The translations under genes were made by a program, and so were the position numbers. Positions 4,371 through 8,305 of a DNA stretch of 40,988 nt are shown one piece after another. The notes beneath the pieces were generated by a model. The model did no database searches. It was not told the DNA's origin and saw only the letters and a list, made by a program, of their open reading frames with translations. This stretch comes from a virus, in UHGV virus genome UHGV-0200626. One strand, written 5' to 3'. Every line of letters starts with the position of its first letter. Position 1 is the first letter of the stretch.

Positions 4371-4613
4371 TTAACCATCAACAAACTCTTCTGGTAATTT
4401 ATCAACCAGTTGATGACTTATTATCAGCCATTTGCCATCCTTCGTTTCGTATGCATATTTCTGGTCTTTTATCATCATGTGTTCGGCTACTGCCCTAACT
4501 GCCTGATCGGTGACATCTTCTCTCTTTCCTACCCACATTCCTTTTTCAGTGTTTAATGTTCCTTGAAAAATACGACCACTTAATGGGCTTGCGCCCATAG
4601 TTTTTACTCTCAT
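4371..4613 (-). CDS. Hypothetical early protein
   Basis: 80 aa ORF co-oriented in the PL-like operon. Confidence 0.45.
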   Translation of the reverse strand: MRVKTMGASPLSGRIFQGTLNTEKGMWVGKREDVTDQAVRAVAEHMMIKDQKYAYETKDGKWLIISHQLVDKLPEEFVDG

Positions 4614-4676
4614 GTATCAGCTCTCAAATAAGTGGTTTGCTGCCAAAACAATGAACCATCCGGAAATTCAGATAGT

Positions 4677-4901
4677 TCATAATTCACTCTTCAATACTTC
4701 CAACTTACTAATCGCCGATAGATATCCGCGCTGATAGGGCATCATCATTCCTTCGAGCTTGCCACTTCTTAACTCCTTCCTGAGCAATTGTATTGCTTGA
4801 TCAATAACCTCTGCCTTAGCGTCCTTTATGGCTTGCTTGCGGGGCTTTGCTTTCTGCTTTGGCAGATTTCTCAAGCATGATGGAATGTATGTCTGATTCA
4901 T
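4677..4901 (-). CDS. Hypothetical basic protein, first gene of the leftward operon (N-equivalent position)
   Basis: ATG at 4901 with GAGGT upstream; Lys-rich N-terminus (PKQKAKPRKQAIKDAK). No arginine-rich motif recognised, so an N-like role is positional inference only. Confidence 0.4.
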   Translation of the reverse strand: MNQTYIPSCLRNLPKQKAKPRKQAIKDAKAEVIDQAIQLLRKELRSGKLEGMMMPYQRGYLSAISKLEVLKSEL

Positions 4902-5153
4902 CACTTACCTCGCTGTAACCTGCTTACTTGTACGATGACCAGCTGCGAAAAGCGCAACTTCTGGCAGGCAGACAGTACCACTCTTCAAATCAGCCTCCTT
5001 TTTCTTTTTCTATATCAAAAAGCTGCTTTGCTTTTGCGACTAAAAGCAAAAAAGCCTTCTCGCTAATGAGCAGCATTGCCGTTCATCCTGAACCCGCCGC
5101 ACTCCCGACGCATGGTTTAATGTCGCGCCGTTCGACATGGCTTAACTATATCC

Positions 5154-5180
5154 AAAGCTATTATTTCTGTAAATAGCTAT
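5154..5180. promoter_or_regulatory. OL-like operator palindrome
   Basis: AAAGCTATT-N9-AATAGCTAT, near-identical to the palindrome in the cI-cro intergenic region; sits upstream of the leftward operon and downstream of the cI terminator. Confidence 0.4.
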
Positions 5181-5269
5181 AGTTATAAAATAACTACTTT
5201 GGTTATTTAGTTGTTGATATCTAATATAATTTATTTTTCTTGAGTGTGATGTTTGGTGTGTTTTGGGCA

Positions 5270-5294
5270 ATAAAAAACCCGCAAAAAGCGGGTT
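5270..5294 (-). terminator. Intrinsic terminator downstream of cI
   Basis: AACCCGC-aaaaa-GCGGGTT hairpin with a T-run on the minus strand (plus-strand A-run at 5271..5277), about 20 bp beyond the cI stop. Confidence 0.6.
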
Positions 5295-5312
5295 TGTTGT
5301 GGTGTGATGAGG

Positions 5313-6044
5313 TTAGTAATCAACTACAGACCACCAGAAAATTCTTCCGATGATCTCAATGTCACTTAGATTCTTTTCTTCTTGTGGGTATTCCAGTGAG
5401 TTAAAGCTTCTAATGCTTACCTTGTCAGGCCCTGTTCGAAAGAGAATCTTAATGCGTTTCCAACCGTTCTCGTTAATGGCGTAAATCTTTCCGTCAACTA
5501 TTTTCTTATCGTTGGTGTTAACAGCAACTGTTGTTCCATCAGGAATGTTTGGCTCCATGCTGTTGCCACGAGCCGGAAAACAAACAACCCCGCTTCCATC
5601 ACTGTTCGCGCCAACTCTGCGAAGGGTTGATTTGGAAAAGCGCAACATAAAGCCGTTGTGATCTTCATCAATCACCCGACCATCCCCGCATGCAAACTCA
5701 ATATCTTTAAGGTAAGGAATTTCAACTTCATCACCTCTTAAAGGCGTTCCTCCATCCCATGGGTCCAAACATCCCCACGTGCTTTCATGAGGAATAGAAG
5801 ATTTTGGATCATAAGGTTCAACTCCCTCATCACGCATTGGCCCAGTTCCATCGGAAAGCCATTCCGTACGAACTCCAAGCACTTTTGATATTTCAAAAAG
5901 TTTGCGCGTATTGCGTGTTTTTCCAGACGTAAGTTTCCAGACGCTTGGCTGAGACATGCCAACAGCATTGCCAAGAGAAGCCTGAGTAAACCCAGCCTGA
6001 TCCATCGCGTATGTAAGCCTTTGAGAAAAAGTATCTAGTTTCAT
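5313..6044 (-). CDS. cI: CI-like repressor (N-terminal HTH, C-terminal S24 LexA-like peptidase domain)
   Basis: 243 aa; HTH-like segment (GFTQASLGNAVGMSQPSVWKL), C-terminal GNSMEP serine motif and a downstream Lys typical of S24 autopeptidases; divergent from a cro-like gene. Confidence 0.8.
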   Translation of the reverse strand: MKLDTFSQRLTYAMDQAGFTQASLGNAVGMSQPSVWKLTSGKTRNTRKLFEISKVLGVRTEWLSDGTGPMRDEGVEPYDPKSSIPHESTWGCLDPWDGGTPLRGDEVEIPYLKDIEFACGDGRVIDEDHNGFMLRFSKSTLRRVGANSDGSGVVCFPARGNSMEPNIPDGTTVAVNTNDKKIVDGKIYAINENGWKRIKILFRTGPDKVSIRSFNSLEYPQEEKNLSDIEIIGRIFWWSVVDY

Positions 6045-6055
6045 TCGGACAACCT

Positions 6056-6112
6056 ATAGCTACAGCTATTATTAGTCAAATATCTAAAGCTATTTACTTT
6101 CTGAATAGCTTT
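6056..6112. promoter_or_regulatory. OR-like operator region between cI and cro
   Basis: ATAGCT-AC-AGCTAT (6056..6069) and AAAGCTATT-N9-AATAGCTTT (6086..6112) inverted repeats in the 108 bp divergent intergenic region. Confidence 0.5.
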
Positions 6113-6152
6113 GGCTATTATTCTTGTTGTGAATTCAGCAGGAGTTATTTTT

Positions 6153-6383
6153 ATGGTCAACAAGGCTATTAAAGCGGCTATTGACTCAGTAGGAAGTCAG
6201 CAAAAGTTAGCTGATGCCTGCGGTGTTAAGCAGCCGTCTGTATGGGCTTGGTTGCATGGGAAGAAAAGGGTATCCGCTAAAAATGCCAAGCGCATTGAAA
6301 TGGCTACCAATGGAAGCATCCCTGCATACCTGATTCGCCCTGATTTATCCGATTTGTTCCCCAATCCGAACAAAGCAGCTTAA
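6153..6383 (+). CDS. cro: Cro-like HTH regulator
   Basis: 76 aa from ATG 6153 with AGGAG upstream; HTH-like segment QQKLADACGVKQPSVWAWLHGKK; divergent from cI. Confidence 0.6.
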   Translation: MVNKAIKAAIDSVGSQQKLADACGVKQPSVWAWLHGKKRVSAKNAKRIEMATNGSIPAYLIRPDLSDLFPNPNKAA

Positions 6384-6502
6384 TAAAGCAAATTTTTATA
6401 CCGAACGGCCCGGTATACGGTCGGGTGCCCGGCGTGGTCAAGGATGACTGTCAATGGTGCACGATAAAAACCCAAATTATTTACCTATGGAGATAGTAAG
6501 AA

Positions 6503-6799
6503 ATGACACAAACAAGTTACAGCAAGCCAACACAGCGAGAAATTGATCGCGCTGAAACTGATTTACTCATCAACCTGTCAACGCTTACCCAGCGCGGTTT
6601 GGCAAAGATGATTGGCTGTCATGAATCGAAGATAAGCAGAACGGACTGGAGATTTATTGCTTCGGTCTTGTGTGCTTTCGGAATGGCATCAGACATCAGT
6701 CCGATTAGCAGGGCTTTTAAGTATGCATTGGATGGAATCACAAAGAAAAAATCCCCGGCTGCCACCGAGGATTCTGAGCAAATTGATATGCAATTCTGA
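6503..6799 (+). CDS. cII: CII transcriptional activator
   Basis: 98 aa; C-terminus KKKSPAATEDSEQIDMQF matches lambda CII KKRPAATERSEQIQMEF; correct position after cro. Confidence 0.8.
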   Translation: MTQTSYSKPTQREIDRAETDLLINLSTLTQRGLAKMIGCHESKISRTDWRFIASVLCAFGMASDISPISRAFKYALDGITKKKSPAATEDSEQIDMQF

Positions 6800-6831
6800 G
6801 GGAATTACTGGATCAATCCACAGGAGTAATT

Positions 6832-7476
6832 ATGACATACGAAAATGACAAATTCCAGGTTCTGAAGAGCATGAAGGTGCCAGATGATTTTAAATCAAAT
6901 GGCTTTGTTTATGTGCTTTCTAATGAGTGCATGCCAGGAATTTATAAGATTGGGATGACTAAGCATTCACCAGAAGTTAGGGCTAAAGAAATTTCAGCCT
7001 CTACTGGCGTTCCTAAGCCATTTAAGGTGATAGCAGCCTTTCATTCAAATAATCCCGCATCAGATGAAAAACTCATTCATAAAGCCTTTGCAAAAGAGAG
7101 GCTTAGTGATAATCGAGAGTTTTTCAAGCTTGAAGATAATGAGCTTTCTGAATCTCTAAATGAAATAAGGGCGCTGGTTGGCCCTGAAAGAAATGGCGAG
7201 ACGGCAGAATACGCAATTTACGACTCATTCATTTCTTTTCGCCATGAAAATGAGCTTGATCTTAATGAGGAGCTTATAGAGCAAGGTCTGGGTAGTGTAG
7301 TTGGTCATCTTCCTGCGGTGAAAAATTTCCTTATTCGCGCCGGAATTGATTACGCGAAGCAACTGATAAGCAAATATAACTCATCGATAGTTATTAATAC
7401 AGATGGCAGTGTGGTGATGGTTAAGTCTCTTGAAGCCCAATGCTTTGATGCGGAGGTTGGAAATGAGCCTGGCTGA
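6832..7476 (+). CDS. T5orf172 (GIY-YIG-like) domain protein, accessory gene
   Basis: 214 aa; N-terminal GFVYVLSN...GIYKIGMTKHSPEVRAKEIS...PFKV...EKLIHKAFAKERL...REFFKL fits the T5orf172 pattern recalled from memory; AGGAG 5 nt upstream of ATG; inserted between cII and O. Confidence 0.55.
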   Translation: MTYENDKFQVLKSMKVPDDFKSNGFVYVLSNECMPGIYKIGMTKHSPEVRAKEISASTGVPKPFKVIAAFHSNNPASDEKLIHKAFAKERLSDNREFFKLEDNELSESLNEIRALVGPERNGETAEYAIYDSFISFRHENELDLNEELIEQGLGSVVGHLPAVKNFLIRAGIDYAKQLISKYNSSIVINTDGSVVMVKSLEAQCFDAEVGNEPG

Positions 7477-8305
7477 AGTATTTTACCTGTCGAAGAGTGA
7501 ACCTGTTGAACAGGAGCGAAGAGTGGCTGATATCGATGATGGTTACACCAGATTCGCTAACGAGCTGCTGGAAGCTATCGCAAGTGCTGATTTAACCGCT
7601 CGCCAGTTGAAAGTTATGCTGGCCTACGTCCGGAAAACATATGGATTCAATAAGAAAACAGATCGAATAGCCGATGAGCAAATTGCTCAGTTAACAGGAC
7701 TGTCAAGGCAGAATGTTAACAAGGCTAAAAAAGAACTGATTTCAATGAATTGCCTGTTTATGGATGGAAATCAAATCGGTGTAAACAGTGAGGTATCTGC
7801 GTGGCAATTCAGCAAGTGTCTCCAAGTTAGCAACTTTGTCTCGAAGTTAGAGACAAAAAATGTCTCCAAATTAGAGACACTCAATGTCTCGAAGTTAGAG
7901 ACACACAAAAGACATTCTTTAAAGACAAAAGAAAATATTAATAAACCCCCTATATCCCCCAAAAAAGTTTCTCAGAAGTTCGACCCGCTAGAAACAGAGT
8001 TGCCTGATTGGTTATCAGCAGAAACATGGTTGTCGTGGGTTACCTATCGCAAGGAGATAGGTAAGTCGATCAAGTCTAAGCAAAGTGTCACTCAGGCTAT
8101 CAACGTTCTAAGCAGAAGTCTGGAGAAGGGATATACACCTGAAGAAATTATAAACCAGAGCATCGCCAGTGGTTGGCAGGGGATTTTTGAACCCAAGACT
8201 CCAAAGGGGAAATCTCAACCGAGGCCGCAGCAGCGAGCTATGCAGGAAAACTTTGCCGCCAAAGATTACGGGCAAACTGAAATGCCTTCATGGGCGCAGG
8301 AGTGA
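7463..8305 (+). CDS. O: Replication initiator, lambda O-like
   Basis: N-terminal region (RRVADIDDGYTRFANELLEAIASADLTARQLKVMLAYVRKTYGFNKKTDRIAD) parallels lambda O; GGAGGT upstream of ATG 7463; contains iterons. Confidence 0.8.
   Translation: MSLAEVFYLSKSEPVEQERRVADIDDGYTRFANELLEAIASADLTARQLKVMLAYVRKTYGFNKKTDRIADEQIAQLTGLSRQNVNKAKKELISMNCLFMDGNQIGVNSEVSAWQFSKCLQVSNFVSKLETKNVSKLETLNVSKLETHKRHSLKTKENINKPPISPKKVSQKFDPLETELPDWLSAETWLSWVTYRKEIGKSIKSKQSVTQAINVLSRSLEKGYTPEEIINQSIASGWQGIFEPKTPKGKSQPRPQQRAMQENFAAKDYGQTEMPSWAQE
7817..7903. repeat. Origin iterons inside the O gene
   Basis: Three 19 bp inverted-repeat units (7837..7855, 7861..7879, 7885..7903) plus a degenerate copy at 7817..7835, followed by an AT-rich stretch to about 7975; they encode the repeated peptide VSKLET. 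Confidence 0.65.

Follow-up and report, generated by a model that had tools for sequence, protein, structure and literature searches.

The repressor of phage 434 binds as a dimer to 14-bp operators of the form ACAA-N6-TTGT, as crystallography in the Harrison and Ptashne laboratories established, and the cI and Cro proteins of that phage share QQSI at the recognition helix. Looping between the left and right operators, OL and OR, has been shown for the repressors of lambda, HK022 and phiKO2 (PMC8053113). The window analysed here (the whole 40,988-bp stretch of the virus genome UHGV-0200626) very probably holds the immunity switch of a temperate lambdoid phage, in which a 434-like cI dimer reads 14-bp operators of the pattern ATAGCY-NN-RGCTAT. 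The layout is that of a lambdoid switch: a cI gene with helix-turn-helix (HTH) and S24 domains diverges from cro, three OR sites lie over PR and PRM, and OL sites lie over PL. A homologous N-terminal repressor domain and partly symmetric 14-bp operators are the marks of the 434-type class, and the locus has both.

The cI gene (5313-6044, minus strand) encodes 243 amino acids with Pfam HTH_3 and Peptidase_S24 domains and a PHROG assignment as transcriptional repressor, that is, a 434-like HTH at the N-terminus and an S24 self-cleavage domain at the C-terminus. Residues 6-68 align without gaps to the DNA-binding domain of the 434 repressor (phmmer E = 4e-9 for 2r63 and 8.1e-9 for 1per). Across a gap of 108 bp, the divergent cro gene (6153-6383, plus strand) encodes 76 amino acids of the P22_Cro/YdaS type (Pfam YdaS_toxin and P22_Cro); its structure matches are 3bd1, the nearest solved one, and 1rzs, and 434 Cro is absent from among them. 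The cII gene follows cro, at 6503-6799. The recognition helix begins SQPSVW in cI and KQPSVW in Cro, and the QPSVW common to both fits the two proteins' reading one and the same half-site. Cro would be expected to bind the sites of cI and to act in the lytic direction.

The sequence-only reading had singled out palindromes on both sides of cI, and direct reading of 4800-6700 finds all of them where it placed them. On the left, 5154-5180 reads AAAGCTATT-ATTTCTGTA-AATAGCTAT; on the right, 6086-6112 reads AAAGCTATT-TACTTTCTG-AATAGCTTT, with perfect 9-bp arms; and a perfect palindrome, ATAGCT-AC-AGCTAT (ATAGCTACAGCTAT), occupies 6056-6069. With at most one mismatch allowed, AAAGCTATT-N9-AATAGCWT occurs in the window at the two 27-bp positions only, against a chance expectation of 0.00 from 100 dinucleotide-preserving shuffles. 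Both long palindromes grow outward into 39-bp modules, 5148-5186 and 6080-6118 (repeat families D1 and I1), each of which consists of two 14-bp sites 25 bp apart. The 27-bp palindrome is made up of the inner halves of these neighbouring sites and the 11 bp between them: on the left, the right half of OL1, the -35 element and spacer of PL, and the left half of OL2; on the right, the right half of OR2, the -35 element and spacer of PR, and the left half of OR1. The repeating unit, and by prediction the binding unit, is the 14-bp palindrome ATAGCY-NN-RGCTAT and not the 27-bp one.

Allowing at most two mismatches, ATAGCT-NN-AGCTAT has eight matches in the window, where 1.6 are expected, and five of the eight cluster around cI, three to its right and two to its left. 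A weight matrix trained solely on the OR sites of relatives, with the window sequence excluded, scores exactly five window sites at 18-21 bits (OR1, OR2, OR3, OL1 and OL2). The operator motif that the earlier reading saw on both sides of cI is retained, as three predicted 14-bp sites on the right and two strong ones on the left. The genome-wide look for further copies that it proposed finds the long palindrome at its two places only and the 14-bp sites five times, with nothing elsewhere in the 41-kb window above 12.3 bits. A far-right operator like OFR of HK022, sought downstream of cro, was not seen (best score 4.9 bits), and neither repeat finding nor the conservation profile turned up another repeated motif in the cI-cro gap.

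On the right, the candidate PR (6093-6121, plus strand) has a -35 hexamer TTTACT (6093-6098), a 17-bp spacer and a -10 hexamer TATTAT (6116-6121), both hexamers being nearly invariant in relatives. OR1 (6105-6118, ATAGCTTTGGCTAT), with 21.2 bits the highest-scoring site of the window, lies in the PR spacer and overlaps the -10 element. OR2 (6080-6093, ATATCTAAAGCTAT; 19.6 bits) reaches one base into the PR -35 element and abuts the -35 element of PRM; it reads ATATCT in the window and ATACCT in the phages APC_JM3.2 and PDP110P2. The candidate PRM (6051-6079, minus strand) has TTGACT (6079-6074) as its -35 element and, after 17 bp, TAGGTT (6056-6051) as its -10 element. A simple promoter scan does not call it (the -10 element matches at 3/6 positions). 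Across 12 relatives the TTGA of the -35 element and the T-A-x-x-x-T of the -10 element are invariant amid varying bases, which is the footprint expected of a sigma-70 promoter. OR3 (6056-6069; 19.1 bits), which is the perfect palindrome already mentioned, overlaps the PRM spacer and -10 element. The centres of OR3 and OR2 are 24 bp apart and those of OR2 and OR1 25 bp. With OR2 abutting the PRM -35 element and OR3 lying over PRM, the arrangement is the one that serves positive and negative autoregulation in lambda. The PRM -10 element ends 6 nt ahead of the cI ATG (6044), so placed that transcription from PRM would start on or beside this codon and yield a cI mRNA with little or no leader, as in lambda.

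On the left, the putative PL (5145-5173, minus strand) has TTTACA (5173-5168), a 17-bp spacer and TATAGT (5150-5145), and matches the consensus at 10/12 positions. It is a mirror image of PR, with OL1 and OL2 in equal register. TTTACA-17-TATAGT/TATATT stands within the OL sites of two relatives (L031 and L037) and is invariant in the alignment of relatives, which points to promoter function here too. OL1 (5148-5161, ATATCCAAAGCTAT; 18.5 bits) lies in the PL spacer and overlaps the -10 element; OL2 (5173-5186, ATAGCTATAGTTAT; 18.3 bits) abuts the -35 element, 25 bp from OL1. A degenerate OL3 is a weak candidate at 5190-5206: in its 14-bp frame (5193-5206, ACTACTTTGGTTAT) it scores 0.5 bits and has a single good half, GGTTAT, and it can alternatively be read as ATAACT-N5-GGTTAT. 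Its position, 20 bp from OL2, is kept (18-20 bp in L031, L037 and L038), and an ATARCYAAAG block at OL3 is conserved in alignment with relatives. From OL1 to OR1 the distance is 957 bp, and looping of OL to OR across these roughly 0.9 kb is plausible.

The relatives come from hundreds of cI homologues ranked by identity over the N-terminal domain, of which the subgroup keeping the recognition segment QPSVWKL(T/A/V)SG was chosen. Its loci are from Pseudocitrobacter, Citrobacter, Salmonella, Serratia, Pluralibacter, Sodalis, Pantoea and Shewanella. (A contig scan by protein alignment gave 27 loci, one of them close; the informative relatives came from exact-protein look-ups.) The cI-cro gap, 108 bp in the window, measures about 108 bp, in part exactly that, in the subgroup's nine closest loci (L004, L031-L039), and three 14-bp ATAGCY-NN-RGCTAT blocks stand at unchanged positions in all loci of the subgroup. 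Conservation in phages that share this cI, on which the sequence-only reading had staked its claim, holds for every relative with this helix. With the weight matrix, every relative shows an OL cluster of this motif, 130-1500 bp downstream of its cI; OL1 and OL2 are 25 bp apart in 11/11 relatives scanned and a third OL site, where one scores (L031, L033, L034, L037-L039), follows after another 18-20 bp. The 14-bp blocks and the promoter hexamers are kept, while the other spacer bases drift, in cI homologues from Citrobacter, Salmonella, Serratia, Pantoea and Shewanella. Twelve non-redundant relatives that have the QPSVWKL helix, ranging from E. coli to Shewanella, keep the length of the cI-cro gap, and information per column over their OR regions averages 1.73 bits for OR1, 1.51 bits for OR2 and 1.52 bits for OR3, which forms an isolated block. 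Part of the operator conservation stems from the overlapping promoter elements. The 25-bp spacing of OR2-OR1 and OL1-OL2 being fixed, the larger palindrome is conserved as well and, as far as comparison goes, may carry some further meaning.

Among more distant cI homologues the 14-bp frame and the switch layout stay constant and the half-site varies with the recognition helix. The window and its subgroup pair the helix QPSVWK with ATAGC. QPAIQK goes with ATAAC (L006, L009, L018), QAAIQK with ACAAC (L010, L012, L013, L015, L016, L026), and the 434-like QQAIQQLEDG with ACAAG or ACAAT (L019-L022); since ATAGC and ATAAC overlap at up to two mismatches, only the best-scoring class at each locus is informative in these pairings. 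QPSVWK of the window cI aligns with QQSIEQ of 434; the first Gln is retained, and A is the first operator base of both the 434 and the window sites, two facts that may be linked, given the contacts of the 434 repressor. The cI-cro gap contains no 14-mers of the ACAAC/ACAAG type, so that the predicted specificity is not that of 434. The earlier suggestion of a repressor specificity different from lambda's can be widened: helix, half-site and operator sequence indicate that it would be unlike those of 434 and HK022 as well, a new specificity in an otherwise ordinary lambdoid switch.

The sequence-only reading took each 27-bp palindrome for a single operator with a 9-9-9 geometry wider than the 17-bp lambda operators, which amounts to one operator per side, bound by one dimer with widely spaced heads, and leaves 6056-6069 only a related fragment. 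The statistical uniqueness of the long palindromes in the window speaks for this, as do the perfect 9-bp arms on the right and the recurrence of the large palindrome in relatives, the last being a consequence of the fixed 25-bp spacing of the sites. Yet the outer half-sites, which lie beyond the arms, are conserved on a par with the inner ones in the 12 OR regions (means of 1.32 bits per column for the outer half of OR2, 6080-6085, and 1.82 for that of OR1, 6113-6118, against 1.76 for each of the inner halves, 6088-6093 and 6105-6110), and OR3 is conserved as a complete 14-mer standing alone. The central N9 holds the -35 hexamer of PR or PL, and on the right its remaining bases are unconserved (6099-6104, outside the PR -35 element, mean 0.80 bits). 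In Shewanella loci the right arm has gone from AATAGC to TATACC and the left arm carries no matching change. With their centres 18 bp apart, the two half-sites would be turned to different sides of the helix. The DNA-binding domain of cI has a homologue in the 434 repressor, a dimer of which covers 14 bp, and the related repressor classes all keep the 14-bp frame. A 27-bp operator is on this evidence very improbable. The 9-9-9 geometry is not supported, on account of the stand-alone OR3, the conserved outer halves, the make-up of N9 and the 434 homology of cI; the unit is narrower than lambda's, at the 14 bp of 434. It is still less probable, to the point of being scarcely credible, that the palindromes are RNA or DNA hairpins (terminators, attenuators or cruciforms) and not protein-binding sites. 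A simple scan does mark 6084-6114 on the plus strand as terminator-like, with a stem of 13 pairs, but only three of these are G-C, the tail CTATTATTCT makes a poor U-tract, and the element is upstream of the PR and PRM starts and so outside both main transcripts. What relatives keep, moreover, is bases in 14-bp blocks and not base-pairing, the change in the Shewanella arm is one-sided, and the isolated OR3 would have a 'loop' of just 2 nt.

A further reading, also very improbable though slightly less so than the 27-bp operator, makes Cro or some other factor of the cassette the main or sole protein to read the 14-bp sites, with cI using different or additional sequences. Because cI, cro and the operators are inherited as one cassette, the covariation of helix and half-site does not show whether it is cI or Cro that reads the operators, and the Cro family (P22_Cro/YdaS) is not that of the cI N-terminal domain. 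Against this stand the QPSVW helix start that cI has in common with Cro, the placing of the sites over PL, PR and PRM, which is what a lambda-type repressor needs, and a gap that offers cI no other repeated motif. Two Pantoea loci (L029 and L030) bear on the question as well: their cI is only about 32% identical overall and has an unrelated C-terminal domain, and it keeps both the QPSVWKL helix and the ATAGC sites. The reading we prefer remains a 434-like cI dimer on 14-bp operators. Such a cI would bind each partly symmetric 14-bp operator as a dimer. On OR1 and OR2 it would cover PR and on OR3 it would cover PRM; from OR2, against the PRM -35 element, it would stand where a lambda-type repressor does when it activates its own promoter. 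On the left, the strong OL1 and OL2 and the degenerate OL3 would together cover PL. The 27-bp palindrome probably marks two adjacent sites filled cooperatively by a pair of dimers; that its perfect symmetry stems from a tetramer arranged symmetrically on OR1-OR2 and OL1-OL2 is a weaker possibility. Homology to described repressors and the layout of the locus are what we infer binding, cooperativity, looping and PRM activation from, and equally the leaderless cI mRNA and the role of the terminator that follows the gene.

The sequence-only reading also placed a terminator between cI and the left operator, and here it was right. An intrinsic terminator of the cI transcript lies at 5266-5295 on the minus strand, a hairpin (5295-5275) that starts 18 nt past the cI stop codon and is followed by the U-tract UUUUUUAUU. 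Its stem has eight pairs, five of them G-C, with a loop of 5 nt, and its folding energy of -12.9 kcal/mol corresponds to z = -3.9 against shuffles. In three relatives (L004, L035 and L036) the stem is conserved and the loop differs (UUCG); in a fourth (L031) an unrelated G+C hairpin with a T-run occupies the same position. Hairpins that are not identical at one place in relatives argue that function, and not just sequence, has been conserved. The terminator would stop transcripts from PRM and PRE before they reach PL, putL and the leftward early operon. PL points the same way as cI and is followed directly by putL, so that transcripts running on from PRM would enter the early-left operon, and preventing this is the most likely role of the terminator. 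A search of 4500-7000 against Rfam (E <= 0.1) gave only sub-threshold chance matches (Yfr1 and Trp_leader), on the terminator hairpin, and left the palindromes and the put elements without a match; inspection of the cI-OL gap by eye gave no convincing consensus match to a LexA box or an IHF site. The right palindrome was tried as a terminator and rejected: it is upstream of both starts, low in G+C and poor in its U-tract, and relatives carry no compensatory changes.

Homology to HK022 and HK75 stops at 5144, at the edge of the PL -10 element, and resumes at 6394, just past cro. These limits make the intervening 1.25 kb (5145-6393) an exchangeable immunity cassette of the classic sort, with its own operators at the borders. 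The flanks carry putL (5068-5130, minus strand; 95% identical to HK75) and putR (6402-6463, plus strand; 98% identical to HK75), and outside the cassette and the HK022/HK75-like flanks the window is that of a P22-like podovirus (a coliphage). The cassette is present in 33/5,426 complete E. coli genomes (about 0.6%) and in only 2/50,697 phage records, those of APC_JM3.2 and PDP110P2, for which there are genome reports only, with the repressor annotated generically. In the literature library searched by full text, no paper contains the three OR operator strings.

What follows from this is, in part, annotation: the switch is corrected to three OR sites, two or three OL sites, PR, PRM, PL and a cI terminator, and the immunity group that it defines is of use in forecasting which prophages make their hosts immune to one another. 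It would also add a further orthogonal repressor/operator pair to those available for synthetic circuits, and it adds a data point on how a 434-type helix reads DNA; the understanding of how such switches work is unchanged. We would give an even chance to the bolder proposition that QPSVWK/ATAGC is a new, uncharacterised 434-type specificity, forming with QPAIQK/ATAAC, QAAIQK/ACAAC and QQAIQQ/ACAAG a natural series for a residue-to-base recognition code, with a single 14-bp frame and a single switch layout from Escherichia to Shewanella. If that is true, the recognition code of 434-like repressors could be read from the series and used in the design of orthogonal switches.

Set beside the systems with which we began, the locus resembles 434 in its repressor and lambda in its layout. 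With 434 it shares the N-terminal domain of cI, alignable without gaps, 14-bp operators whose outer bases are conserved and whose centre varies (here among sites and among relatives), a tripartite OR between divergent cI and cro, and a recognition-helix start common to cI and Cro; relatives with QQAIQQLEDG and ACAAG fall within the protein family of the window cI. It differs from 434 in its half-site (ATAGC, not ACAA(G/T)) and in its helix (QPSVWK, not QQSIEQ), so that the window phage should be heteroimmune to 434, and in its Cro, which is of the P22_Cro/YdaS type (3bd1) and not a 434-Cro homologue. The likeness to lambda lies in OR1 and OR2 over PR, OR2 abutting the PRM -35 element and OR3 over PRM, in centre spacings of 24-25 bp (20 bp for OL2-OL3), in a probably leaderless cI mRNA, in a terminator that would insulate PL from the cI transcript, and in the C-terminal S24 domain. 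Unlike lambda, the window has operators of 14 and not 17 bp, no rexAB between cI and OL, about 0.9 kb and not 2.3 kb from OL to OR, and a 434-type cI N-terminal domain that lacks lambda's N-terminal arm. HK022 and HK75 resemble it in the flanks, which are 94-98% identical to HK75 and contain putL and putR, but the entire immunity cassette has been replaced: the repressor is not an HK022 cI, and operators of the TGAACC-N3-GTTCA type and the OFR site of HK022 are absent from the window. It is also like APC_JM3.2 and the Wanchaivirus PDP110P2, whose cI N-terminal domain is 100% identical and which have the same five sites.

The switch region is bounded by two sharp mosaic junctions, at window positions 5144/5145 and 6393/6394. 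Identity with phages HK022 and HK75, which is 94-98% in the flanks, breaks off at the PL -10 edge and restarts just past the cro stop codon. The two junctions delimit an exchangeable immunity cassette of 1.25 kb. Among the 35 places in E. coli genomes that match this cassette, two lie in plasmid-labelled records (NZ_CP063485.1 and NZ_CP158430.1). One of these records, 39 kb long, is probably the phage genome itself, and its strain has a further copy in the chromosome; the second record is a plasmid of 179 kb.

Across the compared loci of cI homologues (L004, L005 and L031-L039), from Escherichia to Shewanella, the cI-cro gap of ~108 bp and the spacing of the sites are constant. The interval between cI and OL, by contrast, is anywhere between roughly 130 bp and roughly 1.5 kb in these loci, and in the Shewanella prophages additional genes are inserted there.

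Two places may hold operator sites beyond the predicted set. The block GTTGATATCTAA (5210-5224), between the terminator and OL3, is kept in close relatives and contains an ATATCT half-site (5217-5222). A complete fourth site scoring 16.3 bits, with a weight matrix built only from the relatives' OR sites, occupies the equivalent position in three of the loci (L031, L033 and L034), and the block may be a decayed OL4. On the cro side, the 5' end of the cro coding sequence (6164-6181) contains two GGCTAT half-sites, 12 bp apart. This pair could reflect coding constraint, or it could be a weak extra site; in the Shewanella relatives, the corresponding stretch holds a site that scores 12.3 bits (in L037, for instance, at 2365-2378).

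Just outside its ends, the cassette is closely flanked by HK022-type antiterminator RNA elements, putL (5068-5130, minus strand) and putR (6402-6463, plus strand), with 95% and 98% identity, respectively, to the elements annotated in HK75. Neither has an Rfam match at E <= 0.1. The same phage combines these HK022-type elements with P22-like structural genes. Downstream of PL and putL, in the position of nun/N, lies a 75-aa ORF (4677-4904, minus strand) with no Pfam match; its sole match is PHROG 5305, of unknown function. The region of phage mEpX2 that is 98% identical is annotated as 'anti-termination protein N-like' in NC_019705.1 and as 'antitermination protein N' in PV340544.1.

The replication O-like protein (ORF 7430-8305, plus strand) has a tandem peptide repeat, VSKLET(K/L/H)N, present three times (window about 7880-7960), which suggests that origin iterons are embedded in the gene, as they are in lambda O.
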